64,000 nucleotides of DNA from Cyanidioschyzon merolae (GCA_000091205.1 AP006484.2); one strand, 5' to 3'. Positions 1 through 57,585 are shown, numbered from the stretch's first letter. The notes: generated by a model from the letters alone, not told the origin. Program-made: numbers and translations.

Positions 1-1235
1 ATAGAGCCTGAAGCACTAGCCTGGCGGACTCGTTCGGCTCGCGGGACCTCTCGCCAGGAAGGTAAACTTTCGAAGATACGGAAACCTTTTCCCGTTTTTA
101 AGGTTTACCATAAAGAAAGAAAAAAATTGTTATCTCGTTGCTGGTTATTGATTAGTCTCTGCACTTTGCTCTATGTAGCGTGGTCGATACGCGCACCTCC
201 ATATCTGGCAGGCATGAGAAACAACGCGCTTTTCGCCTTTGATTGTGCATACGATCCTGACAGTTCGCCGGCTTGGTGACCTGACGGGCAAGTTGTATTT
301 GCGTTGAAATAGTAGCAAATCATGTGTTTCATATTAATTGTTTTTCAACACTCAAGTGAGTGTATTCCAGTGATATTTCGCACGTCATAGAAGACGCGTT
401 CAACGGGCGTTCTTTTTCAAGCAAAAAGGAAAATTATGGACATGGAATTCGGGCATCCGGGGGAGCGGGGGGCGGTGTCGCCTGCTGCGGAAAATACATA
501 TGGAAAACAGTGCCGAGCAGTGCGGAACAGGAAAAGGCAGAGAAGCAGAAGAAGGGGGCCAGACGCCAAAGGCTGCAAGAAAGACGACGGAGCGACGAGA
601 TAGTAGTGAAGGCCTCTCTTCATAGACATATCAAGGATCTGCTCAAGAAAAAAATGCAAGAGACCATCAGGAACCGCATCGAATCTTAATCCGTGAGTAT
701 TATTAAGACTTTTTAAGGACTGATGCATTTGGTGAAGGAGGTGTATCGCGACGTGACGAACAGCACAACAGCCGAGGTTCCCGAAGAATTTTCGAACAAG
801 ACCATCATCTGCCACCTGTTGCTTGGCGCCGGGGAAAAGTCGAGGAGAAGCGAGCGATTACATGCCCTCCACGACAAATACACCAAGTACCGCTCCAGCG
901 GTAATCTATACAGGGGAGACTTGCGTATTTATGAATACGGAGCGATGAAGTACCTCACGAATCTGAAGCACCATATGATCGTGAACCTCGAATGTTTCAT
1001 GACAAGCGACGTGTTTGCACAATGCCCGGGCCTCTCTCCTGAGGAAAGAGATGGGCCATCATCGACAGCATCACAAACGATTGTCGCGATGAACAGGAGA
1101 TTGAATTTGTCGACGGGCAGACATCACGCAGGAGAAAGAATGAAGCTTCTGTAATGCATTCGGTTGTACAAGAGAACCGTGCGGTTCTGGGGCTGGCGAA
1201 TCCAGCGGAAAATGTATTAGATGTAAAAAAGATAA

Positions 1236-2640
1236 AAATAGATTTTATCCCCTCATCTTGCGCTATTTCGCGTTTTTGGACCTAGAACCCGAACACAAAG
1301 CGGAGATGGAGCTGGTGGTGAGAAAAAATGAAGAGTCGCAGAAACGGAGGGCTTTCCTACTGAAGAAGCGCTTCGATGTTGTTGCGATATTCAAGATCAA
1401 GTGGCTCTTTGTGACAATCGACTCCAGCATCCTTCATGCCGTCATGAAGGAGACCAGTCGAGAGTTCGACGTGAGCAAATAGGAAATCACGGGTGAAAAC
1501 CGGGAGACTCATTGGAAGAAATTTTTCGATTTCAAACGTCTCAACAGGAGCAAGAAAAAGGTACTCTCGGGGATGATCGAAAGCGATGGGGTATCGATAT
1601 CTGTACACTATAGGCGCTTGAGGGCGGATCGTCCTGTTCCATCTTTGTTGTCGTCCTCGGCGAAGCATGAATATAAGAAGGATATAGATCCTGCGACGCA
1701 CGAGGTGCATGAGAACGACTGTGTCGTCGGAATCGACTGAGGGAACACGAATATTATCACCATCGCTGCATCTAGTTGTGGGGAAAATGATATCAACGAC
1801 AACTTACGGCGGAAAGGCGTGCAACTTTTAAATTACTAGAGAGCGAGATACTACCGGGAATCTGGGATAATCAATGCGAGGAAAAAAGTGAGACATGGAA
1901 TGCATGAGTGAAAGAGCACCTAGAAGCGATCAGCAAGGTGACGAGCAGCGGAGCGGACTCGCAAGCTTTTTGGGGATTCGTGAAAGTTCGCGCTGCTCAT
2001 TGGGAGGTGCTATGGAAAGAATATACAAAGCCCCGGTTGGCTTATCCACAGATGAAGCTGCACTGTGGGAAGCAGCGTGCATTCGACAACTTCTTCGATG
2101 AATTGAGCGCCCTCAAAGAGGAAAAGAGTCAGAGGTTCATAGTAGCTTATCGAGCAGGACGCTGGGTATTCGGAAAAGGGTTTTCACCCGCTCCACCCGC
2201 ATGAATGTACAAGGAGTGCGCATACCGTATTGCCACGACACCAATGGAAGAATTCCGAACGTCATACACACACCACGAGTCGGGGTGTGCATTCCAGCGG
2301 GTCGAGATGGAAAAGTGTCAGAGGAGCCCTGCATCCATAGAAAAGTACGGAGCGCTGACGGAAGAGCAAATGGAATAGAGGGCACGATTTAGAGGACTTG
2401 ATGCTTGCGTGAGTACAACCAACGAAAAGAATCAAATGGAGTTTGTGAACCAAGACTTTAATGCCGCTATCAATATAAGGAGATGCGCAGTGCCGGAGAA
2501 CAGACCTGCAGAGCTGATGAGAGAAAATCTTTGTGGGGTAGCCTCTGGGGGTAGAGTTGCACAAGGAGAAGTTGAAACCAGTAGTAGGGGGCTGTCAAAA
2601 AAAGACCGGTAGGCGTCTGCACATCAGTCGGTAGAAATAT
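1236..2640 (+). pseudogene. TnpB/Fanzor-like nuclease element, copy A (subfamily 1), degenerate
   Basis: Conceptual translation across frames gives ...GMIESDGVSISV...VVGID*GNTNIITIA (RuvC-I, TGA where Pro is expected)...RARYYRESGI...KQRAFDNFFDELSALKE..IVAYRAGRW (RuvC-II region)...HHESGC..VEMEKCQRSP...LTEEQME...VNQDFNAAINIRRCAV (RuvC-III). At least two in-frame stops (TGA, TAG) and at least two frameshifts. Confidence 0.6.
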
Positions 2641-3556
2641 ATAGTCTATGGCAGTCCGTATGCCACTCGCCACCACATTGCACCGGTTATGCAGCGTATG
2701 CCAATTGAAAGCCATTCGCTTCATATATGTATGCATCGGCACGTATGTATCAAATTGCTATTATTACGTGAAACTTCTGTTGAAGCTGATACGGATTTGC
2801 CAGCGACGAGTGCGCACTGTACGCAGTCTTCATGGGAACTCTGCGTCAATGCTTTGAGCTTCAGAGACATGCAATGCGCTAAGCGTCAGGGGTCTCGCAA
2901 GTACACGATCGAGGAGGTATCCGAGTGTCCACGCTGCATCGCAAGAACGCGATGCGCGACAATGCGGTTCATCTTGCGCTGAAGCACACATAAAAAATGT
3001 TTTCGGAACCAGAACGCGCAAAAGCGCGATCGGTGACCGACCGAAGGTCGTTTCTTACGCATCGAGTAGAGACCAAGACGCTGGATCATAAATTGGACCG
3101 TGGAGGAAAACGCCTCAGTCGAAGATTGACCTACTTCGAATGTCGCACCCGAAATCTGTTCTCCGAGCAGGGGAGCGATGCCTACTCAAAGAGTCTATGG
3201 CGCAGAGCAACGCTGTTTCAACCGAAACAGCGCTGCAGGCAGCGTTGTTGAAAACTGAGGCCGGCAAGGGCGAAGCATTCGAAGAGACACGCATCGCTGT
3301 GCAGCTCAGTGAATCTTTACAGTGACGGGAATCGGAAACTCAGGTTTGCCTGCACGTGCCTCGTTCGGCGACTTGCACTTTGTTCACCGGGAAATGCCCA
3401 TCCAGGCGTGCGCGTCGACCACAGAAAAAGGCGCTTTCCAGACGGCTGCAAAGTCCATGCAGACTCTGTGGGCTTGAACTGCGCGCAACTTCGGGGCTGT
3501 GTAATCTCGGGAGAGTCGGCGATGAAGCGCTCATCAATCGCGCGGTCCAATCGCCG

Positions 3557-6500
3557 TCATGAGCACGTACGCATATCGTTTCTGGTTGCACTCGCAGCAT
3601 CCACAAACGGTACATCCGGATTCAGAAACGGGTGCGCGAGCAACTCGGGGATGCTGGCCCTTCGAACGGGATCCCGCTGCAGACAACGTCGTAGCGTATC
3701 CATGAGCGCTGCGGCCGATGCCTCCGAGCCTATGCCCTGGATCCCAGCCACAGGCGGGTACGCAATGTCGTACGTCGGGTCCGTGATGCAGCGGAGCTTT
3801 TGAATCACGTTCAGGTGTGAGAATGGCGTGCGGCCGTACACCATTTGGTACAGGATGCAGCCGAGTGACCAGATGTCACTGGGGCGTCCCAGCTTGTAGC
3901 GGCGCCGCGAGGGAGCCGCCGCCGTCTCGCCGCTGGCGCCAGCGGAAGCTGCCTCGTTGGTATCCAGAATTGCCTCAGGGGACATGTAGTTCAGGGTACC
4001 CACCTGACTCTCGCGGACAATGTTGGTGGTGTCGTTCTGAATCGCCTTGGCGATGCCAAAGTCAATGAGCTTCAGGACACCCTCAACGAAAAGAAAGTTG
4101 GCTGGCTTGAGGTCGGAGTGCACGATGCGCTCTTCATGAATGGTATGAACCGCTTCCAGCATCTGCTGCCAGTAGAGACGCAGAAAGTTCGCATGCAAGG
4201 GTCGTCCAGCGTTGCGCAGTAACAGCCTCGCGAGGTCAATCTCGCCATACTCCATGACGAGGTAAATGAGACCAGCGTGCTCGCGCACCTCCGAAGCGAT
4301 CAGCTGGATGATATTGTCGCGGCCGCGGAGGCGCTGCAGCAACGCAATCTCGTTGCAGTAGCTCCGGAGCGTCTCGCGATCGGCCTTGCGGATGCGAATG
4401 CGTTTCAGCGCGAAAATCTTCCGGGTTCGCGCGCACATCACCTTGAACACCTTGGAAGATCCCCCACGCCCGACGATTTCTAGCTTGATGTACGGGTATC
4501 CACCAACGTGCACCACAGTGTCGGCGAGGCTTGGCGGTAGGCTCAGCAGGCTCGTGCCGTCACCACCGTCAGATGGAGCCACATTCTCCTTCCCAGCGTC
4601 CAGGCGTCGCAGCGGTCGACGGGGCGCCGCTGCAGCCTCAGCAACTGCCGATCCCTGCACGGCAACAGGGCCGTCGACGGAGCGCTGCATCCCGCGGGGC
4701 TGTTGCGCTGTCGGTGCGTGCGCTTCTCGCGCTGCGGGTGCCACGCACGCACCTGTTCTGATGGACACGTGTCCTGCTGATGCATCGTTTCCCGCGCATC
4801 GTCGCGATTTGCTGTCGATCGGGTTCGATGCCGCGGCAGCCGGGCGCTCATCCGGCGCCGCCTGGGTACCATCAGGCACACCAGCAGGCACATTACGAGA
4901 TATAATGTGAGGCGCTTGACTGGCTTCGGGGTCGCCTTGAGCGCGCTGCATCGGCCAGCGATCGGTCGTCGAGGATTGCCGGGCCGGCACCGCATCCACT
5001 GCGAGTTCGATTGCCTGTGGCGACTGCCGGAGACGCGTCCACGGCGGGGGTGTCGTCGAGGCAGCCGGATCCCGGTCGATGCGCGGTGATGAGAGCGCCG
5101 CCTCTGCACCGCCTGCAGCGTCGAGGGCAGTGCGAGCGCGATGCTCATCGCGAGACGCTTGGTGCGGTGGTGAGAGCGTGGCGCGCTGCTCTGGAGCAGT
5201 CTCCACGGAGCGATGCCAAGACATGGCTGTCGCTGGGGCGTCCTCATCTGGCGGTGGAATGCCGGCACCAGTGCCGGTCGCGGTGCTGAACCCGGTCAGT
5301 GCGGCTGGGTCGAGCGCGGTGGCGAGCCCCGCACCAGATGGTGCCTTGCCAACCCGCGCAGCAGGCTGTAACACATCCGCCGTGATCGTCAGCAGAGAGG
5401 CGGCATCGGGCGCGTCGGCGCTGTGGCCGCTGCTATGGTGCGCGCTGCGCACCACTTCTGGCACGGCGTTTTCAGGGTCCGATGACGCGCACAGCCAGAA
5501 ACACGTGCCGCGCATAAACTGCTCAGCTGCCTCTCGCCGAGCAGCTGCCTCCTCTTCGAGCTTTCGCGCCTTGCGCTCGTTTCCCAATCGCCGCTCGAAA
5601 CGCGCCCATAGCTCGCAGATGCGCGGGTCATGCTCGCCAATGCGCTCTGCTTTCAGGTAGCGAAAAGTATCTCGTAGCTCCTCGGCGTCCTCCTGCTCTG
5701 TGAGTGCCATTTGAAAGCGGACGGCTCCCAGCCAGAGCTCGACATAGTCGCTGTTTCGTCGGTGGCCTCGCGCAGGCACCGCCCGCGTTGCCCGTTCATA
5801 GAGCCGCTGCAGGAGGCGCAACACTGCACGCGCCCTGGCGTCGGTGGTGGGGGTACGCGGTGGCATCCCGCTCGGCAGGAGTGCCCGCTCCAGCGACTGC
5901 AGGAAAGACAGCCAAGTACTCGGACACGACGGCCGCGCGGCGAGTGTCCGCAGGTGCGTGGTGTCGGCACGGGCGAGCGCAGTCTCCAGCGCCTCGAACG
6001 CATATTCCCGATACGCTGGTGGAACCAGAGTCAGAGGCGAGGATCCGAACACCTCGCGGAACGTTGCAGTCCAAGACGCGCTCGGCAACGCGCTCAAGGT
6101 GCGTGGATGCGGCGCTACGGCTGCAGGTGTCTCTGTGCGCTGCGCTTGCGGCGACGTAGCCCCTGGGTCGACTGGTGCCGGTATCAGGTGATCTGCGGCA
6201 TCGCCTCCTGTGCCGACGGCCGCCACAACGTGCAAGCGCAGTAGCGGCGGCGTCATCAGGCCCTCGGCGCTTCGCGTCGGTGAGCACGGCGAGCGCGAAG
6301 CACTGCTGTGCGTCTGCTCCGCCGACTGGCGACGACCTCGAAGCTGCTGAACGCGTAGGCGCAACTTCTCCAGGGTCTCTCGTGTCGGGCGCTTCAGGTG
6401 ACTCGAAGCCGATGTCTCGCTCGTCGCGCTGCTGGCCTGGTCGGGTGCCTGCGCATACGCGTCCGTCGCCACTGCGTCCAGCTGTCCCGCACGGCGGTTT

Positions 6501-6730
6501 AACGCTTGCTTCGACCCCAAAACCCACTTTTCCGAGTCGCTGGCCTCGGGAGTCGCATCACGGCCGCCTGACATGTAGAAATCAAAGCCAAAGCGACGAG
6601 CGGTTGCCGCCTTGCCGGAGCCAGAGCTGCCGCAACGACCTAGAGAGCGACACAAGGGCACTGCTGCTGTGGACGCGGGCCACAGCGCTTCTGCTCCGCC
6701 CCGATAGCGGGCGTTCAAAATTTCGGGCAA
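3557..6730 (-). CDS. MPS1: MPS1/TTK-family dual-specificity protein kinase; kinase domain about 3623-4493, long low-complexity N-terminus
   Basis: C-terminal 290 aa contain all kinase subdomains in one block: GRGGSSKVF, ALK, HSDLKPANFL, DFG, GTLNYMSPE, DIWSLGCILY, RDP..R..ELLAHPFL. This matches the Mps1 pattern (IVHSDLKPANFLIVDG.LKLIDFGIA...DSQVGT.NYM.PEA). The N-terminal 740 aa are A/S/P/R-rich low complexity, so the true start codon is uncertain. Confidence 0.75.
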   Translation of the reverse strand: MPEILNARYRGGAEALWPASTAAVPLCRSLGRCGSSGSGKAATARRFGFDFYMSGGRDATPEASDSEKWVLGSKQALNRRAGQLDAVATDAYAQAPDQASSATSETSASSHLKRPTRETLEKLRLRVQQLRGRRQSAEQTHSSASRSPCSPTRSAEGLMTPPLLRLHVVAAVGTGGDAADHLIPAPVDPGATSPQAQRTETPAAVAPHPRTLSALPSASWTATFREVFGSSPLTLVPPAYREYAFEALETALARADTTHLRTLAARPSCPSTWLSFLQSLERALLPSGMPPRTPTTDARARAVLRLLQRLYERATRAVPARGHRRNSDYVELWLGAVRFQMALTEQEDAEELRDTFRYLKAERIGEHDPRICELWARFERRLGNERKARKLEEEAAARREAAEQFMRGTCFWLCASSDPENAVPEVVRSAHHSSGHSADAPDAASLLTITADVLQPAARVGKAPSGAGLATALDPAALTGFSTATGTGAGIPPPDEDAPATAMSWHRSVETAPEQRATLSPPHQASRDEHRARTALDAAGGAEAALSSPRIDRDPAASTTPPPWTRLRQSPQAIELAVDAVPARQSSTTDRWPMQRAQGDPEASQAPHIISRNVPAGVPDGTQAAPDERPAAAASNPIDSKSRRCAGNDASAGHVSIRTGACVAPAAREAHAPTAQQPRGMQRSVDGPVAVQGSAVAEAAAAPRRPLRRLDAGKENVAPSDGGDGTSLLSLPPSLADTVVHVGGYPYIKLEIVGRGGSSKVFKVMCARTRKIFALKRIRIRKADRETLRSYCNEIALLQRLRGRDNIIQLIASEVREHAGLIYLVMEYGEIDLARLLLRNAGRPLHANFLRLYWQQMLEAVHTIHEERIVHSDLKPANFLFVEGVLKLIDFGIAKAIQNDTTNIVRESQVGTLNYMSPEAILDTNEAASAGASGETAAAPSRRRYKLGRPSDIWSLGCILYQMVYGRTPFSHLNVIQKLRCITDPTYDIAYPPVAGIQGIGSEASAAALMDTLRRCLQRDPVRRASIPELLAHPFLNPDVPFVDAASATRNDMRTCS

Positions 6731-12100: not shown

Positions 12101-13069
12101 CCTGAGAAACAGCACCAGGCTTGTCGGTACGTCCGCCTCCAACAGAAGCTCGACTGGAAAACCTTCCAACAGCTTCAACAGAAGCTGAAGCGATGCCCTA
12201 AATGCCGGTCCGGGGTCCGTGAATTCGCAGCGTAACATATGGAGCGCCACAAGAACGATACGGCTGCCTTCCTGCACAAGACGCTCACCGATCGCATCAG
12301 CAGTCAGCTGAACAGTTGCCGCGCCTGCTGACTGACGTATTCCCGTCTCTTCAGCCACTGCGGATAAGATTTCTTCAATTATCGTAGAGAAAATCTCCAT
12401 AGATTCAGCGCTTTCCAGAGGACTTCCGAGCAAATGATCCAGTACCCGAGAACCATAGCTGCTCTCCCAATACTGCACCACAATTCGAGCGAGAAACTGG
12501 GCGACCTTTCTCCGCTCTCCACAAGAAAATGCTCTCTTTCCAGCTGCTAGTGTGCCATGGCAGTGATTCCATAACTCAACTGCAAAAGCGCAGAGCGTCT
12601 GACACATATCCAGGGTGTCCGTACGCGCGCTTAGAGCCTCAGCCTGCGAACGCTCGATAAGGTCGACCAACAGCTGAAACCCATACTGTACAGCGGCCGT
12701 TTCCACTACTCTAGCAAAGTTCGAGTCTGCATCTGGAACAGCAGATCGTGTCAAACTTTCATAGCATAGATTAGCTGCTATGAGGTCCCGTCCCAGCGCG
12801 AAAATCGTGTCTGCGGAGAAAAACTTTGACACATTACAGAGGAACGTATGGGCTTGTCTGCGGCTCTCTCCGGTGCTTTTTCCCCAGTGCAGCACTGCCA
12901 GAGCTGAAACAACTTCCGCCGTAAGATCAGACGCCATTTCCGTTGCAAATCCAGAAATAGTCCCCTTGGCGCTCAGAAGCCACGCAGCCACCACCGCTGT
13001 TCTAAAGTGGAACGACGTCGCGCGCGTACAGTAGTTGCGAGAAGCCCGCCCTAGACCGGACGTCTCCAA
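9110..13069 (-). CDS. Large (1319 aa) uninterrupted ORF, predicted alpha-helical-repeat protein of unknown function
   Basis: Single 3.96-kb ORF with no internal stops and a leucine-rich helical character (HEAT/ARM-like), non-repetitive. No catalytic motif recognised by eye. Confidence 0.5.
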   Translation of the reverse strand: METSGLGRASRNYCTRATSFHFRTAVVAAWLLSAKGTISGFATEMASDLTAEVVSALAVLHWGKSTGESRRQAHTFLCNVSKFFSADTIFALGRDLIAANLCYESLTRSAVPDADSNFARVVETAAVQYGFQLLVDLIERSQAEALSARTDTLDMCQTLCAFAVELWNHCHGTLAAGKRAFSCGERRKVAQFLARIVVQYWESSYGSRVLDHLLGSPLESAESMEIFSTIIEEILSAVAEETGIRQSAGAATVQLTADAIGERLVQEGSRIVLVALHMLRCEFTDPGPAFRASLQLLLKLLEGFPVELLLEADVPTSLVLFLRRRFEQMFGDRLVACADYDWLAIEALGCWITRAQPMLPKQRDVLGSLLETLISFVICFDEAYTGDVGLLIDAPIRWEERLSLLQAVIELTFLAFESTLTHLQERPAIWSSFILLLGRLVSHPWASIAELALAFCCRDQVLKTVLTAQCVVVLLDAAWMRCCMDTSLPAYLFTGKDIVENSVLDANDPRWRLMSFVLSRNAEQPKLNSSLRSRTRDFLRKICQNWRDACLDWVVTRAVDRMDCHRNRRSTGPVMEQFCFREEPAHLHSFWRGLLSVRNGQYPSDAESALFIEMLLDETREVMFFTMSEVLAPLLPSLGRGSGVSKPPGVSKTSSRGASSEVGGEENARLTQVLQLGERVEFVLSMVDTLDLDQDANKIHMILHVFFGCAPLLARIEGAQIRTIQAALRVLERIQQLPCTEHARWSAMGLHRREKWFDALCRGILALLLRSEGSETVSGAQVLLPSIQQALREAPMPFPARCSLLKCVPVIVCSLDSPEKSIPVLNALLEETLGIWKTMALQHEVLRDPERFLIAFLAPSADADTNRTCLLQLLTLFEQMLSVSMKHSIWKQTVMFGELLPTTLPQMVAALNHLFSLRPDGRGDISVLAPSRIEIAQWYRLVMEWMLRAGLLPEAIADSRQHRKELLKTRRSFIHISARGLLLFQRMLALDPDPDALKFYREICLRGIPQVDIEYLALIVRHVMKTLLQCEAQAHQGSDIWETDVTEIWLPLLRATAERIGQLAYEEVSDEESSTMDEVLHGAPHANEASSANEAFDQAAVALVELAVAMLKLESCSRRVQLFNWARDFLRKCLDWHFESASRKAFAFLRKHLSFWIHPAEGYLAIDTESLLQLENSIARALTDERWYSRPEDVRKVHAAVNDELYRRGFSPACFTTSELPSKHPNASMFPGENGGERMRALGNVAVRRSFNHGASTQLNEAAMAFPSSKMASQKHRPLSVRLLQSWKKRTQLYTMDLEDESINGDDDTALEGVAVLFG

Positions 13070-14150
13070 CTGATGTGCAGACGCCTCCCAGTGCTTTTGA
13101 AGCGGCCACCCACTACTGCTTCCAACTGTTTCTCATATAGTTCAACTTTTAGAGGTTGTCCAACAAAGTTCTCTTGTGTAAGCTCTGGAGGTCTTCTCTC
13201 CAGCACCGCACAATTCCTTATATTGGTTGCGGCGTTAAAATCTCGATCCACGAGCTCCATCCGTTTCTTGCCATCACTCCCTGTACTTACCAATGCAAGT
13301 AGCCCATGAACTTTCGCTCTCCTTTCCATTTGCCCCTCCGTCAGCGGTCCATACTTTTCTACATCCTCAGGGCTCCTCTGGCACTTTTCTATCTCCACCC
13401 TCAGGAGTGTACAGCCCAGCTCGTGGTGTGTGTAGGACGTTCGAAACTCATCTACAGGTATCGCAACAAAACGTCTTGCGCACTCATTGCACGTTCTTGT
13501 TGACGGAACTGATGTACACCCTGTTTGGGTCTTCCATTGCCCTACTCCGTACGCTACTACGAGTCTCTGACTTTCATCCTCCTTAAGGGCACTCAACTGA
13601 TTGAAAAAGTTGGCAAATGCCCGCTGCTTCCCACAGTACAGAATCATACGCAGACGAATCCATCGATTCCTTGTATACTCCTCCCACAGCGCATCACAAT
13701 GCGCAATGTGAACTTCCATAAACTCCCGAAAAAAGCTTTAAAGTCCGCTCCTCGGCTCGTCACCTCGCTCATAGCTTCCAGGTGCTCTTTCACTCCTGCA
13801 TTCCACATCTCAATTTTCTTCCTCGCATTCATGATTTCCGATTCTCGATAGTATCTTGCTCTCGAGAATCTCAACAGGCGCATGTCTTTCTGACGTAAGT
13901 TGCAGTTCGTACCATCTTCCGCGCGCGTGGGTACTGCGATGGTTATGATATATGTGTTCCCGGGCTCTGCACCAACGACAAAGTCGTTATCTGGCACCTC
14001 CTGCGTCGCGGGACCCGCCTCCTTCTCATGTTCATGACTCGCCGCACCAACGACGAAATCGTTCTTCTGCACTTTCTGCGTCGTAGGATCCGCCTCCTTC
14101 TCATCTACACGCTTCGTCGCGGGCGAAGCCGAATGCAGACCAGAAGGCGA
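13051..14150 (-). pseudogene. TnpB/Fanzor-like nuclease element, copy B (subfamily 1). Best-preserved copy: one frameshift, N-terminally truncated
   Basis: Two adjacent minus-strand ORFs (13644..14072 and 13051..13719) join with a single frameshift to give VVGAEPGNTYIITIA (RuvC-I)...RARYYRESEIMNARKKIEMWNAGVKEHLEAMSE...GKQRAFANFFNQLSALKEDESQRLVVAYGVGQW...PSTRTCNECARRF (Zn ribbon)...DEFRTSYTHHELGCTL...LTEGQMERRA...VDRDFNAATNIRNCAV (RuvC-III)...TGRRL. Confidence 0.65.
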
Positions 14151-15100
14151 GCCCTACCGCGCAGGAGGTGCAGAAGAACGATTTCGTCGTTGATGCGAAC
14201 CCCGGGAACACGAATATCATACCCATCGCAGCACCCAAGTATAGGGAAGATGCTAACACCGGCAACTTACGTCAGAAAGACATGCGTTTGGTGAAGCCCT
14301 CAAGGGCTAGATATTACCGAGAATCGGGAATCATGAATGCATGGAAGAAAATTGAGACGTGAAACGCAGGAATGAAAGAGCACCTAGAAGCTATGAGCGA
14401 GAAGACGCGCCGAGGAGCGGACTTTCGGGCTTTTCTGAAATTCATGGAAGTTTGTGTTGCTCATTGGAAGGCGCTGTGGGAAGAATATACAAAGCCCCGG
14501 TGGGCCCGTCTGCGTATGAACTCGTACAGTGGGAAGCAGCATGCATTCGCGAACTTTTTCAATCAGTTTAGCGCTCTCAAGGAGAATGAAAGTCAGAGGC
14601 TCGTAGTAGCATACGAAGCATAGAGCTCGGCGTCGAAAAAAGGGTGTAGGCGATCTCCAACGACAAGAACGTACAAAGAGTGCGCATGCCGTTTCGTCAC
14701 GATACCGATAGATGAGTTCCGAGCGTCGTATACAAACCACAAATTGGGGTGCACGCTTCAGAGGGTCGAGATGGCAAAGTGCCAGCGGAGCCCTGAGGAT
14801 ATGAAAAAGTACAGAGGGCCGACGGAAGAGCAAATGGAAAGGAGGGCGAGACTTCGAGGATGGCTTGCACTAGTGAGTTCAACTACCAATGGCGAGAAAC
14901 GCATGGAGTATGTGAACCGAGATTTTAATGCCGCTATCAATATAAGGAGATGTGCGGTGATAGAAAGAAGACCACCAGAGTTGGCACGAGAGAATTTCGT
15001 GGGGCAACCTTTCAAAGTGGGACTATATGAGAAACAGTTTGAACCAGTTGTGAGTGAGCGGTACAAAAAGACTGGGAGGCGTCTGCTCATCAATTAGATA
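14150..15100 (+). pseudogene. TnpB/Fanzor-like nuclease element, copy C (subfamily 1), inverted head-to-head partner of copy B
   Basis: MQKNDFVVDANPGNTNIIPIA...RARYYRESGIMNAWKKIET* (TGA where copy B has TGG/Trp)...MKEHLEAMSE...GKQHAFANFFNQFSALKENESQRLVVAYEA*...HKLGCTLQRVEMAKCQRSPED...VNRDFNAAINIRRCAVIERRPPEL...TGRRLLIN*. Multiple stops and frameshifts. Confidence 0.65.
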
Positions 15101-15144
15101 TAGCTTGTTCCGGTCGGGTTTCCCGCCGCTACTGTGTACTGCCG

Positions 15145-18100
15145 GTGACGTTCGACTTTCGAACAGCGTTCGTTGTCGTGGGTGGTTTTCGTGAGTGCAA
15201 AATGGCTTTTTGCGATTTGAGTGTCTTCACGACGGAACTGTCGTGCGCTACAGGTAATGCACGTCTTCGCAGTCGCCAGGCAACCCTGTTCACCTTGAAG
15301 GGTCGCGTTCACAGGACTGCGTCGGATCTTCGCAGGACTCACAAAATCAGTCGTTTGGTGAGCATGAACGTTAGCGAAACACTCACAAGCACCAAAGCTG
15401 TTCAAAATTTGGAGCCATTAGGCACCAAAGAGAGCGTCCTGGATGCTGCAGTCTCGGCGAAAAAAGTCCAAGCTCCGGGCACCGCAGCACTTTACTTTGC
15501 TTACGGCAGCAATATGTGCCCCCGAGTACTGGGACCCGACACTGATCTTCTCTATTTGTTGCGACGAATATCGTCGTCGTCCTGGGAAACCGGAGAGCCG
15601 GCCGTACTGGAAGGGTTCAGCCTTGAGTTCAGCTGCCCTGGCGTGGAAGCCCTCGGAGAACCAGCATTCGCCAACATTGTGCCTGCCGTCGAGGCCAATT
15701 CTGGTGCACCCCGTGAGCAGTATGATACAGAGGTTCACGGTGTTTTGTTTCGATTGACACAAGCAGAATTAGACCGCATCCTATTATCGGAAGGGGTCGG
15801 GTTAGGGCGCCAGCGCGTCGTCAACGTCACAGTACGCACCTACCGCAACGTACTCTATGAAAATGTCAAGACAGTCGCGTATGTATCATGGGAGATACGG
15901 AATCCACAAAAGCCCTCGTCACGTTACCTCGAGCTCATCCTGGAAGGCGCTAATTACTTTCACTTGGATATTCGGTATGTTCGAACGCTTCTGCGCAAGG
16001 CCTCCGGTGAGTACACCTCTGCCGCGCTCCCAGCCACGAATAATATTCAGAGCGACATGGTGAAAATGCTTCAGGACATACAGGTTCCCCAACAGATTGT
16101 GGCGTTTTATCAAGAAATGCACCACCTCAAGGGAACGGTTCGATTCATCATGCCTCCGATGCTTGACGAGAGCTCACGGGCGACTAGGCCGCTGTTGCTG
16201 TTCTTCCCCGGCCTAGATGGCACTGGCATCAGTATTGCTACACAGCTTAGAATGTTTCAGTCAAAATATGATGTTCGCATTTTGGTGATTCCTCGGGACA
16301 ACCGAATGCCGCTGGATGAATTAGGGAACACAATTCTGGATTGTTTGGAGTGCCTCTGGAAACAAAAGACAGAGGTACTGATGTCGAAAGAGGTATCGCA
16401 CGAGCCTCAGGTTGCACCGGATGTTCTCGCTGAGAGCATGGGCTGCTTATTGTGGTTTGAGTGTGTAAGAGCTTTTCGCAGACGAGCGAATCTCAAATGC
16501 GGCGCTGTTGACCCCTGCGAAAGCCCTACTCGCGCTCTGGCAAGGCACGTCATGCTGGTGAACCCAGCAACTAGTTTCAGCAAATCAGCTCTCGCTCCAG
16601 TTTGGGAAAATATCTCTGCATTACCCGACCCCGTTTACCACGTTGCTCCGTACATATTTAGCCCTATTCTGATCGATCTGCTCCAGCTTTTGGCAGAGCC
16701 CAGTATGGCGTTTCAGTCACTCCAGCGAATGGGTGTCCTCCGCGAAATCTTGCCCAAGGAGACGCTCCGTCATCGGGTGCGACTCATTCGCGACTTTCGC
16801 TATGCAGCCGATGACTTTGCGGCTGCAGCAGAGTACGGTGCTGAGCAATACACAATCGCAGTTGCAGCGAATGATGCTCTGCTGCCCTCTCTAGCAGAAT
16901 CAGAGAGTCTCCTTGGAAAGCTTACGCTGCCTTTTCTCGAAATTCAAAAAACGGGGGTCCGGAGGATGAGTAGCCTTCCTGCTACTGTTGTTCGGTACGT
17001 TGCAACTCAAGGTGGGCACGCGCTGCTCCAGTCGGGGAGCTTCGATGCTTACCAGCAGCTCATGGTTAAGGCTGAACGCGCACATGATCGCATTCGAAGA
17101 GGTCTTTTGGAACGAATACCCAAAGCTGCGAAAGATTCACATACCCGTTCGTCTCCGAGCCAGCATACAACGGACGTCACCGACAAAACAATGGGCTCAG
17201 GTTTCGTAACTGAAACCCTCGACAACGACCAAACACTTGTTGCCAGGTCGCCAACAAATGGACAGCTGGATCGATATGCGATACGGCAGAGGACTGGCTC
17301 GTCCGTGCGGGATTCAACCACGGGCTCACGGTTTTTCCCGAGGAACAAGTTCGCGCTCGGCGAGACGCGGTGGCAGCTTCAACGACAGAGGCGTCTGCTT
17401 TCGCCAATTTTTCTGGATTTCGACAAGGTACCCTTATCATCATCAACGCGTCCGGTTCTGTTTGTTGGAAATCATACCCGTTTGGGGCTCATCGATTTAC
17501 CATTTCTGATTGACCAAGTCTGGAAGAGCCGGGGTGTATTCGTGCGGGGTCTGGCACATCCCATTATATTCGCGATGCAGCAGCGGGGTCAGTCTCAATG
17601 GGAAAGTGCGGGAGATCGGCAGCGCACGCGAGCCCGCGACTTTGCGACGAATCTCGCTGCACTAGGCGCTGTATCTGTATCACCGCGAACGGTTTACAGT
17701 CTCCTTCGGAACGGCGACTCTTTATTGCTTTTCCCAGGCGGCGCCCGTGAAGCATATAAGAGACGTGGCGAAAATAATCAAATTTTTTGGCCGAAGGATG
17801 AAGAGTTTGTGAGACTTTGTGCACGCCTCGATGCTGTTATTGTGCCTTTTGCCTCTTTTGGCCCTGATGACAGCTTCGACGTCGTGGCGGACGGAGAAGA
17901 ACTCTTGAACGTACCTTTTCTGGGCGGCTTTATTCGCAATCAGTTTGAAAGAATGGGTGTTCGCGCTGATATTGTGCGTGCTTGGCGCTCGCCGCTTTCC
18001 GAGCAGCCCTCTGATGCGGCGATCGCAGACCTGTTGATCCCGCTGCTGCGACCGCGGCCGCCACTGCGACTCTACTTCCAGTTTTTCGATCCGGTATATC

Positions 18101-18324: not shown

Positions 18325-21300
18325 TGCTTACAAGTTGCTTGAAAGGAACGTCAGCATGTGGCGCTCCCAAGATAGCTTCCTTCTCGGGCATCGGCGGCGA
18401 TGCACCTCATTTTCTCTCCGGAAATCGGATACCCACTGGAAGCGGGCATTGCGGCGCCGTTTCATATGCGCTTGCACAGGTGCAAGCGCGGCGACTTGTG
18501 TGCAGGCACAATATGCTGCCGTGCACGCACGTGCACGCTTGCATCTGTTCTTTCTGAGGCTGAAGGACGTTGACATGAACCAGGGATACTCCATGGTGCG
18601 CTTGATATCGACGTGCTCGCCTCGATGAACAGCCGCACACCGCTCTGATCTGCAGGCGGGCACGTTGCGCATCGAAGCATGCTCATCGCTCAGTAATGTC
18701 GATTGATGGAGCGTGGTTATCGGTTACGAATTTCCACGGAAAACAGTACTCGGTTGGACTGCAAGGCGCTTTAGCGTCACAGGAATGCTGACCGTACTTT
18801 ACATGTACTCTGCACCTGGTGGTGTACATCCATTGCTCTCTCTCCTCGCAGCCGCGTCGTCCAGGTGGAGACCTCAGCGTTTTAGCTCAATGCCGACACT
18901 GTGTAGTAAATGATCATTTTGAAAAGTTGCTCAACACAAAGCCGCCGGGCGCTCCGGAACAACAGCACATTACCGTGTTGATTGAATCGTTTACAGCTCG
19001 ATGGCGAAAATGGTTGCAAGCATCGTTTCAGGGGGAATCACACCATGGCGAGCAGCTCGCAGTCGATATTCTCGCCACACGACAATTGATCAGCTTATCG
19101 TACACCACTTAGAGCAGCCGTATCTGTTAATGACGCATCTGCTCTACCAGTTTTTGCGCACACCGGCGTGCGTAATGCATGTTTATCGTCCTGAACGCAT
19201 CGATGGGAATCGTACAGGATAGATTCTTGCATTCGTTGTACGCTCTCGTCGAGGACCTAGAGCGCAACGCTTACGACCTGCAGTACGTTCAGCGCCATAG
19301 GCTAACACCAAGCGACGCAAGCTATCGGTCATTCCTTTTTCCATATCATTGAACGATCTGGTTGATGCTTGCTACAGTGCAAACGGAACCGTCGGCTACC
19401 AGAGCGCTATCATGTCCACCTGTCAGGGATAATCCGCAGTAGCCACCACAACTCTTGTCTCCTGCTTCCGAATGAATCGTATAAAAGCATGTGACTCTGC
19501 TCGATTCGGCGCTGAGCGTGTCGAACTGAGTTCTAATGTCGTCATGCAGCGTTTCGGGACGCCTCATGACAACCATCATGCCCAGCTCCCTATGAGACCG
19601 TGCCCTGGAAAGTTGAGCCGCTCCATCTTGTTTCCGTTCGGGTTATGGTTTCGTCGTTTTAATTAAGAGTTATAGGGACCGCTCCAATGTCCTGGATCCC
19701 AGGATCTTCGCCCATAAGGAAGTCTTTCTCTTCATTTAAAGTGAGTGGTTGCGAACAAGCATGGTTGCTTGACTCAGGTCTAGGTTCCACGAATGGCTTG
19801 CAGACTGGTTTTACTTCGGTCTCGATGATATCTGTGAGATTCGTTCCATTTCCTCCATGGACACGTGAAATCCTGAAGGAGCTTCGCCAATGCTCTTCGT
19901 GAAGTTGGTCGAACGCCTCGTAGTCGTTCGCTGAGACCAGCTCATCCTTCGACTTCTCCTTTACTTGGCCGAATAGTATGAAAGTAGCCACCATACTCTG
20001 CATCTGTTTTTTCCTAGTGACTCATACGTTCTCGGAGGGAGATGGGGCTGAATCTCATCTTCTCCACGCAAGTATTTCATGTTCATTAAGCATCCTTTCG
20101 AAACCTTCTACGTCGCGAGGGGGCGCACGCACCGGAGCGGGTCTCTCCGCTCCCTGCCGCGCACGAGCAGAGAAGAAACAAAGCAGTTTAGGGTTGGTGA
20201 AAGTAGTAGAGTTCAAGTCGTCAAAGAATGATTTGCGGAAGAACGTTGGAATGGTTGCGAACTATTCTTTTATGGGCCCGTGAGCTTAGAGATAGCTTTC
20301 GACATCAACGCAGACACTCTCGACAGTAATTGGGAGAACGTACTTGCACAAAGAGCAGGTCGACGCCACTAGCAGCTGCGTTCTGCTTGACCGCTTATGA
20401 ACAGTAGAAGTTGTCGCTGTCAAAGGTTATGATAGAGGAGCATGGGATGAGGAAGCCATGAAGAGCTTCACAGAAGGATGAAGCATCTAGTGATGTCGAT
20501 TGTTTCACGATCTGGAGGCCACATCACGATTAAATTGCCGCTGGTGCTGATATTGTCGGTATTGCGAGCTTATTGCTCATTTTTGAATACTGGTTTGGCC
20601 CATTTTCAGTACTCATGTACAGGTCTACCATTCTTGCCGCCAAAAGTCTCATCGGGTGAGAGGAGCACCATTCCATCTCGCATGAGGCGTTCGCATTTCA
20701 GAAGGATATGCTTCGTGTGTTGCTCAACACGACGCAGTCTCCAAGACAAACATGTTTTTCATCTTTGCATCTCCGCGGCTCACCAGCACAGTTCTAAATA
20801 AAGGCACGGAAACTTGGTATCCTGTGGCAACTTTGGCAAAGTATCCTTCAGAGGAAATGGAGTGGAAGGGAATGGTGAGGATACTGTCTTACAGGTAGAG
20901 TTTGATAGGTTCTGTTTGCGGTGCACGATGTCCATGATAAGGACTGCGAGAAAGAGCAAGAAAACTCACCTGGCAGGCAAACTTGACTGAATTGCACAAG
21001 TAATGCTGCTCTGTTGCGAGCCAGCAGTAACATCCCAAAGTCGTTCCAAACCGTCCAGCAATCCGTAGGACACATACGTGCCGTCAAATACCTGCGATGA
21101 AGACAACCAAATATGTTCGTACTGGCGCAGGCGTTCCGGAATGCACTGCCATGACTGTAAGGCACGTGCACAGCATCCTGCACAAACAACATGGTAAGCA
21201 TAAAATGGAACCGTTTCACTAACTGAAGTGAACACTGCAAAGTTTGTTCCTCGTCCAGCTGCCGGCAACATCAGCCTTTGCTGACCTTTTCCATAATTGT

Positions 21301-26654: not shown

Positions 26655-28900
26655 CATTCAACTCAATTCTGTTTCACACTGCTGTGTGGATTCGTATGCG
26701 TTTTCGGAATTTGTAACAGGCGATCGACATCACGATGCAATGTACCCTATGGATTGTAGACGAATTGCCAGTCGGATGTATTTATCACTGAACAGCGCAT
26801 GGAGGACTGCATTCCTCGTGCAGCTCAGCTGTACCGCGATACTTAGATGGTCGAGGAACTCTTACAGAACCAAGAACCTGCGCCCCATTGTAAAAAACTG
26901 ATATTCTCGAAGACTAATTTCGGTCGATGGCGGAGAACGACGTGTCGTTGAGTTCAATGAAAAGCAAGAATGGACGATAGTAGCCATCATTGTCGTCTCT
27001 GTAGTCCAGCAGCTTGTTCGTGTAGATCTGAAAACACTGGGATACAAGCGCCAACAAGAGTCCTGGTCCACGCACGGCTATCTTCCACCGAAATCGAAAA
27101 GACAGTGTTCCTGGAACGTTCTGGTCGGCACGATACGGGGATTCGTCAGTTCGTTTTCCCGGTCGATGATACTTCCCACGGACGAGACGGTGAGCGCGTT
27201 AAAGGGTATTCGAGGAGATGGAGTCCGTTCACTGTACGATCGAACTCGTGGATAGCGACCACGTCCTGTGTTCTGGCTGCAGTAGACTCAAGTTGCGGCC
27301 TCAGTTTCGCTTGTACAGAAGGTTCATCCAACCGCATCCACTTTGCCGAATCATTGAAGACTTTCCCTGATGTCTGGCGAAGTTCTTCTACTACACAACG
27401 TTGTATTTCTCAATTCCCCATGCGTTTGAGCTTTTACCGATTCTTTTGGAAAACAGCAGCTTTTTATTCCTCCGTACACTCCGTGGTGGGGGTCCACGGA
27501 AGGGCATTTTTTGTGCAAAGTAATATTCGCTGCACTGGGAAAGTCGCTAAAGCGTTCAGCGCAAGGTGACGCCAAGGTACATTCCGTCTTTCTTCCGCAA
27601 GTCCTTCTCCCCCGGGAAGGTCCTCACGTAAGAGTAGAAAGAAGTGCGTTCATTGTAAAGAAACAAAAACCCGAGGAAAAGTATTGAGAAGCAAGTCGGG
27701 GATCCCGGAGGCTTGGTGTCGCCGGATTTCCACAAAAAAAAATGTGAAAATCCTCTCCTCGCCGACCATCGAGCGAAGAAGAGCGAGTGACGAAGAGGAA
27801 GAAGAAATGTATTGGGGGATATGCAAGAAAAGATGTTTGTCCAACGGTACGATGACGAGACTGTAATGGCACAGAGGGCACGAGTTCTATGAATCCTTGC
27901 ATCGATGAGTTCCACCGGAGGCAATAAATACATAGAGCTCTTGAATCGGAACTTCAGTGCTGCCATCAACATTAGGAGATGTGCGATCCTGAAGACGAGG
28001 CTCAAAGAGCTGATGCGATCCAACACCATGGGATAGCCTCTCAGGTTCGAATTGTGCCAGGATAAACTAAAAGCAATAGCGGGCGGCCGGTCGAGAAAGG
28101 CTGGCAGGTGTCTGTGAATGGACACGTATTTACCATCCACGTTCGTGAGACATTTTTGTTTCACTGAAATTCATGTTTTTTGCACACACAAGCACACGCT
28201 GCGTCATTCGATAGAAAATTATCGGAAAGCGATGTTGTCCAAAACGGAATAAATGACGGGAGCAAAAACCAGACCCGAGAACGAGTCGAGAAACTGCGAT
28301 TCGTTAATGCTCCCCTCGTGTTAAGCGCTGATGCACCCTTCACCGTTAGCGATCACCTCGACGCCGCAATTCCCAACTCAAGACCAATCTCGATGCAAAC
28401 AGAACAGGAGGGAGCCTCTGCAAGCATATCCCTTTAGAGTTATTATGCAGCTTTTGAGTGCCGTTTGGTGCATAGCCATGAATGGACGCGTATTTTTCTG
28501 ACGAATTGAATCAATCATTTAACGTGACAAGTTTCGAGAACCTCCGGCTTGAGCTCGTAAACAAGCCGCCAATAAACTTAGTCGAGTATGCATTCTCGCC
28601 AATCCAGCGGCGCGAAATGCTGCCCCCACATATTGTCTTGAAGCACCAAGATCGAAAACTTGAAGCATGGGTGATTTGAATAGGCGACACGTAAGGAGTG
28701 GAGAGGACCATATACTAATACACTAGAATCGGGTACTTATTCCCATTATTTTACGAAATCTTGTCCGATTGCGTCGAAATCCACCTTGACTCCGGTGCAG
28801 TAACAAATTCCAGCAGCAAAGCATCAAACGAGCCACCGCGAAAAGACGTCTGAGAATGCTCGAATTCCTTTGATTTCGTAAGGCGTAATTGCTGCACCTC
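26655..28900 (+). mobile_element. TnpB/Fanzor-like element copy D (subfamily 2), degenerate ORF plus about 0.8-kb 3-prime non-coding region, inserted between the divergent HERC and ATAD2 genes
   Basis: Left end TTCAACTCAATTCTGTTTCACAC is homologous to the Rep2 left end TTCATCTCAATTTTGTCGCACCC. Internal ...KGIRGDGVRSL... and C-terminal LNRNFSAAINIRRCAILKTRLKEL (RuvC-III)...AGRCL*. The downstream region 28478-28900 carries the conserved 3-prime module. An internal 16-bp direct repeat GAATGGACRCGTATTT at 28117 and 28478 flanks a 345-bp segment. Confidence 0.55.
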
Positions 28901-36689: not shown

Positions 36690-37600
36690 GCAAATAATCA
36701 AATGCTTTTGTCGCGGTTTAAGGCAGATGCATTCGATGGGCATTCATTTTCAAAAATTAACAATCCAAGGGAAAGGTATTGGCATGGAAGTCGAGGTTCC
36801 TGAAAGCTTGGTGTTGCCAGATCGGTGAAAAATCGGAAAAAACTTTTCTCCCAACAATCGAGCAAAGAAGAGCCAGTGCTTGAAAAGAAGTTGAAAGGGA
36901 GGCGGTCGAGAAAAAAAGTTTTGCCCAAAGGGACGATGACGAGACTGTAGTGGCACAGAGGGCATGAGTTCTAGGAATCCCTCCACTGGTGCGTACAAGC
37001 AGTAGCTAGAAACGCGTGTAATTCGTGAGCTGCGACTTAACCGCCGCCGTTAACACCAGGAGATGTGCGATGCTGAAGACGAGACCCTCAGAGCTGACGC
37101 GGACGAACTTTGTGGAGCAGCCCTTCTTGGATCGAATTGTACAAGGAGTTGAGGCGGAGAGCATGCTGCCGGTCAAAATGACTGGGAGGAGTCTGCGCGT
37201 GGGTAGATATGTGTGCTCCCAATGTTCCTAGAACGTTTATCGTTATGCTGAAGCGCATGTAAAAAGTAGTGTTGAATTCTTTCTTGTACAATAATGTGGT
37301 GCAATTTGCTGCACCCACGAGTTGAGATGAAAGAGAAAGATCAAAAACATTCAGAAATGCGATGTTTGCGCATACTGCACGTTAGGAAAGAAGAATGCCG
37401 GAGGTTTGTACGATGAATTGGATAATGACAGCAGTCAGTTTACGAACGCTCGGTCGAATGCATTCCAAATCATCTTGATTCTGGTGACGCTGTAAAGTTC
37501 AGCTGCAAAAATCGATGGAGCAACATCGAGAGCGAACAGAGATCCCTCGAAGTACTTATGAATTCCCAAGCCCTAATTGTAGCCCGTTGTATGCCAAGGC
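36690..37600 (+). mobile_element. TnpB/Fanzor-like element copy E (subfamily 2), internally deleted derivative
   Basis: Left-end-like AATGCTTTTGTCGCGG at about 36700 is joined directly to the ORF 3-prime portion (...GTMTRL... DLTAAVNTRRCAMLKTRPSEL = degenerate RuvC-III, ending ...GRSLRVGRY). It is followed by the conserved 3-prime module at 37430-37570. Confidence 0.5.
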
Positions 37601-39889: not shown

Positions 39890-41297
39890 TCGAACGTGCA
39901 CTACATGAAATGTTTCCATCCATGGCATTATAGAGCGGAACGAGTTCCAGCGAGGTAAGACGGCCACACACAATCAAGCATGAGCGTCTTCTCGCTGTCA
40001 TCAACACAGGCTTTTGCCGGGTTCTTTGTGACGAGTTCCTTCGTCCCTCCCTTATATCCTTCTTTGAATACGTCGGTCTCCCCTTTCCCTCGGCATCTGT
40101 TGTCCGCAGACGGAGGAGGTTCATGGCAGCGTTACTGTCCAGACTCCGCACGTTCCGACTGTTGGCCGCACACTTCATGCGCACGCAGGCGTTGCAATCT
40201 ATTTATCGCTTACTGCACTCATTTTCTATGTTTACGGCCTCGGTGCGCCTCTCGCAGGGATGACACCTGCTTATGGTGAAATTCCCTCACATTTCCGCCA
40301 CATATTCTATCTAGAGCGCCGCCACGTAGCGCGCGAACGCGTGCTTCATCCGTCGGTATGTGCCCTTGACATGCACAGGAGGCTCTCTTCAGTGCCCCCC
40401 TCTGTTTGGTCGTCTGGTACGGTACCCCACGATCACGGGCTTGCTGTGAGCGATTCCAGGGGTGCGTTTTCTGTCCAGCGCACACGCGAGCACACGTTGT
40501 TCCATTCGATGAAGGATTCGTCGAATGCAATACTATCTCTGATGAAACAAGAGCCGGAAGCAAGGTCGAGACTGAAGAACAATTCGAAACGTTTCGATGC
40601 ATCTACGCTCCGTTCGTGCAACCAGGTGACGCACGCTTCACCCGGGGAGATCACAGCAATGACTAAAGGCCGAGTCCGGGACCCGTTTCCGCGCAAACGG
40701 AAACTGCGGGAGCCCCTGGGCATCATACCCAGTGAGATGTGTGGTGCCGTTGTCGAAAGCCGTTTCGTCGATAGCCACAAAGAGAGGAGGATTTTTCTCG
40801 CGAACGCGATCGATTATTTGACGTGAACAGCCCAGTGAAGTTGCAACACGAGCTTGTGAAATAGCAGTCGAAGGATGGCGTCTTGGCAAGCACTTTTCCT
40901 CGTCCATCCAGGGGCGCGACATGCTGCGCACGCGAGTTGCCCTGAAACAGAAAGATCGAAGACTTGAAGAATGCGTGATCTAGGCATGCTATGTGTAAGC
41001 AAAAGAGAAGTGCCGCGGCACGTACGCGTCGAAATGTTTTACGATATCGGCTATTTTATTAGCCCGCGTTCGAGCGCGTCGCGAACCATTGTGATCATGG
41101 TCATGCGAAGTATTCCCGGGGTAAAGACTCGGAGGCATCACATCGGAAAGACGTCCGCGGATTCTCGACTGTTTGCGAATCCTCACGCGGTTATCGCTGC
41201 TTATCGGATGTCGAGCATGTACATCCCAAAAGTTCGGAAAAAATGAATGGCAAGAATAGAGTACGCATGTCAGTTTCCTTTCTTAATCCAACACGAA
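39890..41297 (+). repeat. Rep1a: 1.4-kb non-coding repeat, homologous to the 3-prime non-coding region of the TnpB/Fanzor-like elements (a non-autonomous derivative); 46 bp upstream of the GRWD1 start codon
   Basis: About 99.5% identical to 47843-49250 (all ORF-track translations are identical apart from 1-2 residues). 40780-41210 aligns to 28478-28900 downstream of copy D, and the first 100 bp align to 28125-28200. It contains the conserved module. No convincing protein-coding content. Confidence 0.7.
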
Positions 41298-57290: not shown

Positions 57291-57585
57291 GGAGGCGCCT
57301 CTGACTAAGTGTTATTTTAATCTTCCTGGTGGTGGAATGTTTTTAGTTTTACTGAGCCTATGGTGCAGATTCCACGATGATTTCGGATACGATTTTTCGT
57401 CGTTGCACTTGCGAGGGTGCACCGGTCAGAAGTAGAGCCGCGAACTTTCCGCTGTTTAAGACGCCGAATAAGTTTCCGTGGGTAGAAGGGCATCGTTTGC
57501 TTCTTTGTGTCGACCGGCCAAAAGAGTGGAGCCTGTGAGAGGTACGTCCACCACGACGAGGGATCTGTAGGGCAGAAGCCTGCCA

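Follow-up and report, generated by a model that had tools for sequence, protein, structure and literature searches.

The divergent gene pair formed by CMB066C and a GGCT/hydrolase/acyltransferase gene on chromosome 2 of the red alga Cyanidioschyzon merolae 10D is separated by a long imperfect palindrome, which fills the gap between the two genes and raises the question of what it is and how it arose. The palindrome lies in a 64,000-nt stretch of DNA, referred to here as the window, for which a preliminary description had noted a head-to-head pair of nuclease pseudogenes at 13051–15100. We examined positions 12700–15500 on both strands and found the feature, approximately 2.2 kb in length, to be a head-to-head dimer of two old, 5′-truncated, and inactivated copies of CMe-1A, a transposon family with a Fanzor1 gene. 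It is a transposon relic of unusual shape and not a new kind of system.

The inverted symmetry was far above chance by repeat search, blastn, and self-blast, so that the palindrome of about 2 kb described previously was confirmed. The repeat search returned inverted arms at 12990–13732 and 14431–15173 (743 nt, 75% identity), at 13731–14023 and 14142–14434 (293 nt, 80%), and at 14043–14098 and 14142–14197 (56 nt, 84%). Alignment of one arm with the other by blastn extended over 1031 nt at 76.6% identity (E = 0), and in the self-blast 12995–15168 matched its own reverse complement, with the symmetry reaching past the open reading frames (ORFs) into the 3′ untranslated ends. The palindrome consists of a minus-strand arm (arm B, 12988–14141) and a plus-strand arm (arm C, 14142–15175) that are 75 to 80% complementary. 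Given that the 3′ untranslated end of the element belongs to each arm, its true limits, at about 12988 and 15175, lie approximately 60 to 85 bp further out on each side than those first proposed. The arms had been thought to meet near 14150; the symmetry centre is instead at 14120/14121 if the outer repeat unit is counted, and we place the breakpoint by inference at about 14138–14142. The two arms show 69% identity over 306 amino acids at the protein level, in line with the earlier figure of about 70%. Their nucleotide identity is 78.5%. The palindrome is old rather than fresh, as had also been suggested.

The nuclease pseudogenes of the two arms are Fanzor1/TnpB-like RuvC sequences arranged head to head. 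Searches of Pfam with the arm ORFs and intact homologues yielded nothing significant (only Cas12f1-like_TNB at an E-value of 0.51), a single-sequence phmmer search of the Protein Data Bank (PDB) gave no match, and exact-sequence look-up of the arm ORF returned no database record. For the family consensus protein we obtained 74 homologues, all of metagenomic origin and up to 752 amino acids in length. A profile of 14 homologues searched against PDB with hmmsearch matched Fanzor1 of Parasitella parasitica (PDB code 9cf0; E = 4.1e-10) in two stretches, one spanning TDGV...DPG (WED/RuvC-I) and the other EFRTS...NRD.NAA.N (bridge/RuvC-III). The family profile thus shares both regions with Parasitella Fanzor1 and bacterial TnpB, whereas the arms themselves are without the N-terminal half and the RuvC-I Asp. 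According to the account of Bao and Jurka (2013, PMC3627910), CMe-1A is a Fanzor1 family of C. merolae with a unit of about 3 kb and approximately 150 copies that are about 80% identical to their consensus; it has neither terminal inverted repeats nor target-site duplications, and the authors left it unclassified and judged the intactness of some copies to be odd for so old a family. Hot-spring metagenomes yielded 447 CMe-1A matches. Of 80 loci that were fetched, about 50 are full length, the unit comprising a conserved leader of approximately 340 bp, an ORF that starts MKKQVDDPGG..., and about 100 nt past the stop codon. Copies are 77 to 93% identical to the family consensus (arm B, 87%; arm C, 84%). 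Host, unit size, copy number, divergence, and termini all agree with CMe-1A and point to this family, the comparison having been made with its published description (same species, single Fanzor1 gene, unit of about 3 kb).

Each arm corresponds to the 3′ portion of CMe-1A, about 1.1 kb containing the RuvC half and the complete 3′ end, and reads outward; the N-terminal half of Fanzor1 is missing from both. In arm B, the 5′-truncated reading frame occupies 13051–14141 on the minus strand and ends at the native stop codon (13051–13053), beyond which lies the 3′ untranslated end (12988–13050) with the terminal hairpin GTTCcactttaGAAC at about 12999–13013 and a GT-rich tail that may reach approximately 12966. 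The frame is interrupted by a single 2-bp frameshift near 13726–13732. Glu (GAG, complement of 13965–13967) stands at the position of the RuvC-I Asp, giving GAEPGNT for the consensus GADPGNT. The RD motif is retained as DRDFNAATNI. Homology of arm B to full-length copies continues through the codons for PVPPSAAPVTK, about 20 bp beyond the symmetry centre. The junction at 14112–14141 contains the quasi-palindrome GCTTCG-tcgcggg-CGAAGC (14112–14130). Arm C follows on the plus strand as a single 5′-truncated frame (14142–15097), in which the RuvC-I Asp is replaced by Asn (AAC, 14198–14200; DANPGNT), in-frame stops are present at 14360–14362 (TGA) and 14621–14623 (TAG), the RD motif is NRDFNAAINI (14915–14944), and the frame ends at a premature TAG (15095–15097). 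Its 3′ untranslated end (15098–15175) includes the terminal hairpin CGTTCGActtTCGAACa at about 15149–15166, and the GT-rich tail may extend to approximately 15199.

The Fanzor1 motif of Bao and Jurka (PMC3627910) is D-X(125,275)-[TS][TS]-X-X-[zinc finger]-X(5,50)-RD. Its catalytic RuvC-I Asp is absent from both arms, and the RuvC-III RD motif (NRDxNAAxNI), which aligns to NRDQAAVLNF of 9cf0, is present in both. In the zinc-finger region of the family (consensus EFRTSYTHHELGC...EKCQ), TS is present and two His and two Cys stand in place of C4; arm B retains the consensus form, and arm C reads RASYTNHKLGC. Given the loss of the RuvC-I Asp, the absence of the N-terminal half, and the stops and frameshift, neither arm, as judged from its sequence, can encode an active nuclease. 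The peptide MQKNDFVV, previously taken as the start of both pseudogenes, begins at a GTG inside a repeat unit (...QEVQDNDFVV in the family) and so lies within the ORF rather than at a start codon. A heavily degenerate CMe-1A copy elsewhere in the window (copy A, 77–2730, plus strand) retains the leader, the N-terminal half, one repeat unit, the RuvC half, and a type-2 3′ hairpin and, being near full length, displays what arms B and C have lost. The counterpart of the arm start in copy A is in mid-ORF, about 20 codons before G-I/A-D-P-G-N-T, with approximately 300 codons upstream including "ETDGV". Copy A is 77% identical to the consensus, has six stops and two frameshifts in its last 310 codons, and is convergent with the gene at 3557–6730.

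The arms are joined at an array of 25-amino-acid repeats that is a regular part of the family. Immediately ahead of the RuvC-I motif, intact homologues and full-length copies contain one to six tandem units, (T)KHEExKEAxPATQEVQDNDFVVxA. The array in the window extends over 13969–14197, with two 75-bp units in arm B (13969–14043 and 14044–14118, minus strand, 77% identical) and one in arm C (14142–14197). The tandem duplication of 75 bp that had been noted at the centre of the palindrome is therefore present as a pair, but it is a native Fanzor module of variable copy number and not a by-product of the palindrome centre. Tandem Repeats Finder scored nothing at 13000–15200, given that the units are merely 77% alike. 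The array stands at the centre because both arms are truncated at or beside it. Its units encode small DNA dyads, namely GGATCC, CTGCGaCGCAG, and AACGACnnnGTCGTT / AACGACtttGTCGTT, and NDFVV itself is encoded by AACGAC-TTT-GTCGTT. Many metagenome contigs break off within the array, at a point about 100 to 280 bp ahead of the RuvC half. Loci at contig ends that begin with the array were checked for further hidden palindromes, and there were none.

A second palindromic dimer (L051/L022/L023) was found in three metagenomes. It is 2.0 kb in length, its arms are 72% identical, and it adjoins the CCT7 gene. The encoded CCT7 protein is identical to C. merolae XP_005539507.1, which places the second dimer on a different chromosome of the same species. 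Its flanks share no host genes with the window by tblastx, and the two dimers therefore represent different loci. When reversed, the second dimer is colinear with the window palindrome through the junction at 82 to 85% identity, and a 34-nt junction motif occurs at the dimer loci only. The junction is asymmetric, in that the B-type arm is about 20 to 45 nt longer and the C-type arm begins inside a repeat unit. Homology of the B-type arm to full-length copies across PVPPSAAPVTK is 71% in the window and 84% at the second locus, and arm B and its counterpart in the second dimer share more derived sites than do most pairs (rank 2–3). The same internal junction, as in a foldback-like composite, is thus present at two loci, the minimum for such an assignment. 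The junction peptide was not detected in 13 short homologous ORFs, which start at internal Met codons. In a dimer-like metagenome contig, a truncated plus arm (L021:3509–4456, plus strand) is an intact 315-amino-acid ORF that starts at an ATG, and a co-oriented host ORF of 778 amino acids follows 250 bp later.

The nucleotide identity of arms B and C is that expected for two independent draws from the family, and in no 120-nt window were the arms each other's best match. At sites where it departs from the consensus, arm C has states in common with copy A and the minus arm of the second dimer, both of which are older copies, whereas arm B groups with the mainstream of the family. Differences between the arms are distributed over the three codon positions as 59/54/94, and the ratio of nonsynonymous to synonymous substitution rates (dN/dS) is 0.31, outside the range of a neutral simulation (mean, 0.81; minimum, 0.5), a pattern that resembles a signature of purifying selection. 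We rejected CpG hypermutability as the cause of the low ratio because the third-position excess stays at non-CpG sites (0.164 versus 0.063–0.082). Recent gene-conversion tracts were not found in the arms, with no 120-nt window showing >92% identity to any copy. The tendency is common to the family: in each of the copies, most differences from the consensus fall at third positions, with dN/dS values of 0.13 to 0.37 (77 copies, last 310 codons). Intact copies number 18 among these 77, and in-frame stops are far more numerous than frameshifts; TTG>TAG was seen 11 times among 51 representative copies, which may reflect one shared site. The low dN/dS across the family is a further sign, of a kind to which Bao and Jurka first drew attention, of continued selection on the protein in an old "non-autonomous" Fanzor family.

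The 3′ ends define the outer borders of the dimer. In an alignment of 53 copies, conservation extends about 95 to 100 nt past the last codon and then collapses after ...GAACGGCGTT. The terminal hairpin occurs in two variants, CGTTCGActtTCGAACG and ACGTTTTTCttttGAAAGACGT, and beyond it lies a loose tail rich in GT. Pairing is kept in both variants, CGTTCGA/TCGAACG and ACGTTTTTC/GAAAGACGT (for example, 15149–15166 and L010:2306–2438), which suggests that the structure may be important to the element, as DNA or RNA. Both arms possess a complete 3′ end, with the hairpin of arm B being degraded. In the search for a guide (omega) RNA at the 3′ end, RNAalifold supported only a 5-bp stem, covariation was limited to the small hairpin, and no wider conserved RNA structure was found at the 3′ end of the family. 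Third-position conservation is not increased toward the end of the ORF, and on this basis we rejected the presence of an RNA within that part of the coding sequence. The outer flanks of the palindrome are GT-rich tails that resemble each other in inverted orientation and that many solo copies also have; neither a target-site duplication nor a flanking direct repeat was found at the palindrome. CMe-1A 3′ ends often lie 0 to 125 bp from the first ATG of an ORF that has the same orientation and encodes 200 amino acids or more (loci L004–L087). Sufficient downstream DNA was available for 48 family copies; where the nearest ORF of this size lay within 300 bp of the 3′ end, it was co-oriented with the element 24 times and opposed 10 times. 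The count is crude and may still include some redundancy. Such a bias is compatible with a preference of the element for inserting at the 5′ ends of genes or, alternatively, with promoter activity directed outward.

Given that the same asymmetric breakpoints are found at two loci, the junction appears to have a single origin, and we consider it probable that one old composite dimer is now present at two or more loci. An illegitimate head-to-head join would have taken place once, at the structure-prone repeat array, to create the junction, and the resulting composite with two right ends would then have come to occupy two or more loci (here and beside CCT7), spreading either as a moving unit or by ectopic recombination between family copies. 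Two independent CMe-1A insertions, one per divergent gene and each reading toward its gene, with both 5′ halves subsequently lost in one deletion ending in the hairpin-prone repeat arrays, would account for the origin of the arms from different strata of the family rather than as sisters, as well as for the separate intact 3′ end on each arm. The arrays are, moreover, length-variable and dyad-rich, and, given the excess of co-oriented over opposed ORFs (24 versus 10), bidirectional promoters would be expected to acquire head-to-head pairs. No bidirectional promoter is present at the second locus, however, and the recurrence of the asymmetric junction at the unrelated CCT7 locus, with 82 to 85% identity through it, is hard to reconcile with purely independent insertions, one of the origins proposed earlier, because independent deletions would not repeat both breakpoints. 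We therefore regard this history as unlikely.

The other origin proposed earlier, an in-place inverted duplication, would entail fold-back of one truncated copy, after which the two arms would have diverged neutrally over a long period. The arms begin at nearly the same point of the gene, there is no central spacer, a strong hairpin is present at the centre, and the centre-proximal units are more alike than are the arms overall (84% over 56 nt, including the 25 identical nt that code for VQKNDFVV). In yeast and Tetrahymena models, a double-strand break followed by fold-back priming at short inverted repeats produces palindromes with identical sister arms. The present junction is similar in that it lies at a short quasi-palindrome with a loop of a few bp in a hairpin-prone tract, but it connects unrelated family members: in no segment do the arms resemble each other more closely than they resemble random members of the family, and their dN/dS of 0.31 is outside the neutral range, so that neither the sister arms nor the neutral divergence of a fold-back palindrome was found. 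The asymmetry of the junction, at which arm B keeps about 20 to 45 nt more, and its occurrence at another locus also argue against fold-back at this site, which we consider very unlikely.

The single composite dimer that we favor is itself not free of difficulties. The second dimer is known from metagenome contigs of the species and was not read from the 10D chromosome; corresponding arms are unequally diverged (84% identity between arm B and its counterpart, 69% between arm C and its counterpart); and the two C-type arms carry different 3′ hairpin variants. Corresponding truncated arms still show dN/dS values of 0.26 to 0.28, although a dead unit should not show selection, and recent gene-conversion tracts that might explain the unequal or selected divergence were not found. 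In three metagenome contigs (L021, L039, and L060), the minus arm and junction also seen in L051 (94 to 97% identical) are connected to different plus arms and different flanks, which could be the result of ectopic recombination within the arrays or of metagenome mis-assembly. The failure to find a target-site duplication at the palindrome likewise weighs against a unit that moved.

A stronger form of the composite model would make the dimer a non-autonomous "two-right-ends" Fanzor1 transposon derivative that has itself moved. We consider this improbable. If it were true, the 3′ end and hairpin would be sufficient for mobilization in a one-ended or rolling-circle-like manner, and the protein-level constraint between truncated arms would imply continued use of RuvC-half fragments or, alternatively, a dense network of gene conversion among all of the approximately 150 copies. 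The dimer resembles foldback-type or long-inverted-repeat composites in that two inverted arms of about 1.1 kb end in the same terminus and the same internal junction is found at more than one locus. It differs from them in that the arms are coding remnants with 22 to 28% divergence from each other, neither a target-site duplication nor a sign of mobilization was found, and only two loci are known. The Helitron2-borne elements CRe-1/2/3 of Chlamydomonas, for which Bao and Jurka (2013) speak of "one-ended" transposition, have in common with CMe-1A a 3′ hairpin, an excess of 3′ fragments, and 5′-truncated copies. The termini of CMe-1A are fuzzy in the alignment, and neither a RepHel gene nor the canonical Helitron ends (5′ TC/T, 3′ CTRR) came to light, although no search aimed at them was made.

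The translation of CMB066C from the ATG at 12937 (12937–12935, minus strand) corresponds exactly to XP_005535168.1, and that of the GGCT/hydrolase/acyltransferase gene from the ATG at 15202 is identical to XP_005535169.1 at 1040 of 1040 residues. The start codon of the latter gene had been put at a GTG at 15145, only 45 bp from the pseudogene; this start is wrong, with the arm C frame stopping 104 bp upstream of the true ATG and transposon-derived sequence approaching to within about 10 to 26 bp of it. The spacers that remain are 12938–12987 on the CMB066C side (nonconserved, ≤50 bp) and 15176–15201 on the other (≤26 bp). The unoccupied site that the preliminary description had suggested seeking in related genomes was found in two cyanidiophytes, in which the same divergent gene pair is present without the insert. 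The intergenic region is ≤657 bp in Cyanidiococcus yangmingshanensis (L005) and about 105 bp in an uncultured relative (L006/L007), and tblastn detected no Fanzor remnant in either region. The downstream neighbors, a HECT/RCC1 gene and a bromodomain AAA gene, are also conserved in both relatives. Since both retain the gene pair without a Fanzor remnant, the palindrome is, on this comparative evidence, an insertion of the C. merolae lineage into a short bidirectional intergenic region.

That the palindrome is an inverted chimera of assembly would be suggested only by the conflicting right halves of metagenome contigs of the second dimer. The locus was re-assembled at 99.5 to 99.7% identity in three independent metagenomes, the flanking proteins match C. 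merolae 10D exactly, and both flanks are syntenic in two other species. Given this re-assembly and the synteny of the flanks with relatives, the chance that it is an artefact is close to nil.

Any present-day effect of the palindrome would, on sequence grounds, be passive. Fragility is conceivable as one such effect: of the hairpin-forming fragile site that had been proposed, the hairpin at the centre is supported by the predicted fold of 14030–14210 as single-stranded DNA (181 nt, –57.9 kcal/mol, z = –9.5), and local hairpin extrusion of the central ~155 bp is plausible in this model. A cruciform on the kb scale is, from the sequences of the arms, excluded because the long arms are too diverged, with 20 to 25% mismatches. 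The earlier suggestion that the pair makes hairpin double-stranded RNA or small RNAs is unlikely, given that C. merolae is described as being without RNA-interference machinery (as stated in PMC11376382). It had also been proposed that the pair serves as a promoter of the adjacent gene. Co-option of the outward 3′ ends as core promoters or 5′ untranslated regions of both flanking genes would explain the persistence of the dimer, would fit the approximately 26 to 50 bp or less of non-transposon DNA before each ATG, and would be in keeping with the orientation count. In the relatives, however, about 100 bp suffices for the same gene pair, the arms are decaying and the 3′ hairpin of arm B is degraded, the gene next to the second dimer faces it with its 3′ end, and the orientation bias could be explained equally well by insertion preference or by selection against antisense insertions. 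A literature search found no usable transcription-start data for C. merolae. We consider such co-option improbable.

The significance of the locus is mostly one of bookkeeping, in that 2.2 kb of unannotated sequence in the genome of a model red alga can be accounted for by two rearranged copies of a known transposon. The alga is amenable to efficient gene targeting by homologous recombination. For research on Fanzor proteins, it exposes a hypervariable, hairpin-encoding 25-amino-acid repeat just upstream of the RuvC-I motif, a conserved 3′ terminal hairpin, and a tendency of the elements to sit directly upstream of co-oriented genes. Head-to-head truncated dimers, the variable array, the 3′ hairpin variants, and the orientation bias are not described in the section of Bao and Jurka (2013) concerned with CMe-1A.

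Further Fanzor-like fragments are present in the window at 19142–19979 (minus strand) and, on the plus strand, at 27857–28114, 36941–37201, 42936–43306, 56946–57310, and 61597–62175. These six fragments are only 25 to 55% identical to CMe-1A at the protein level, correspond mostly to the last 90 to 120 codons or so, and have 3′ flanks without a match to the CMe-1A 3′ end; they probably derive from other, older Fanzor families. The window also contains dispersed direct repeats of about 1.4 kb, with 39894–41296 corresponding to 47847–49249 (99.4% identity) and 41934–43284 to 55944–57294 (99.9%), and with an older relative at 26722–27675 that is similar to 41982–42943 (69%). One of these repeats terminates in a Fanzor-like 3′ fragment, and together they look like a recently active or recently duplicated family. 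An inverted repeat pair unrelated to the palindrome is located at 48704–48956 and 51690–51938 (about 250 nt, 68% identity).

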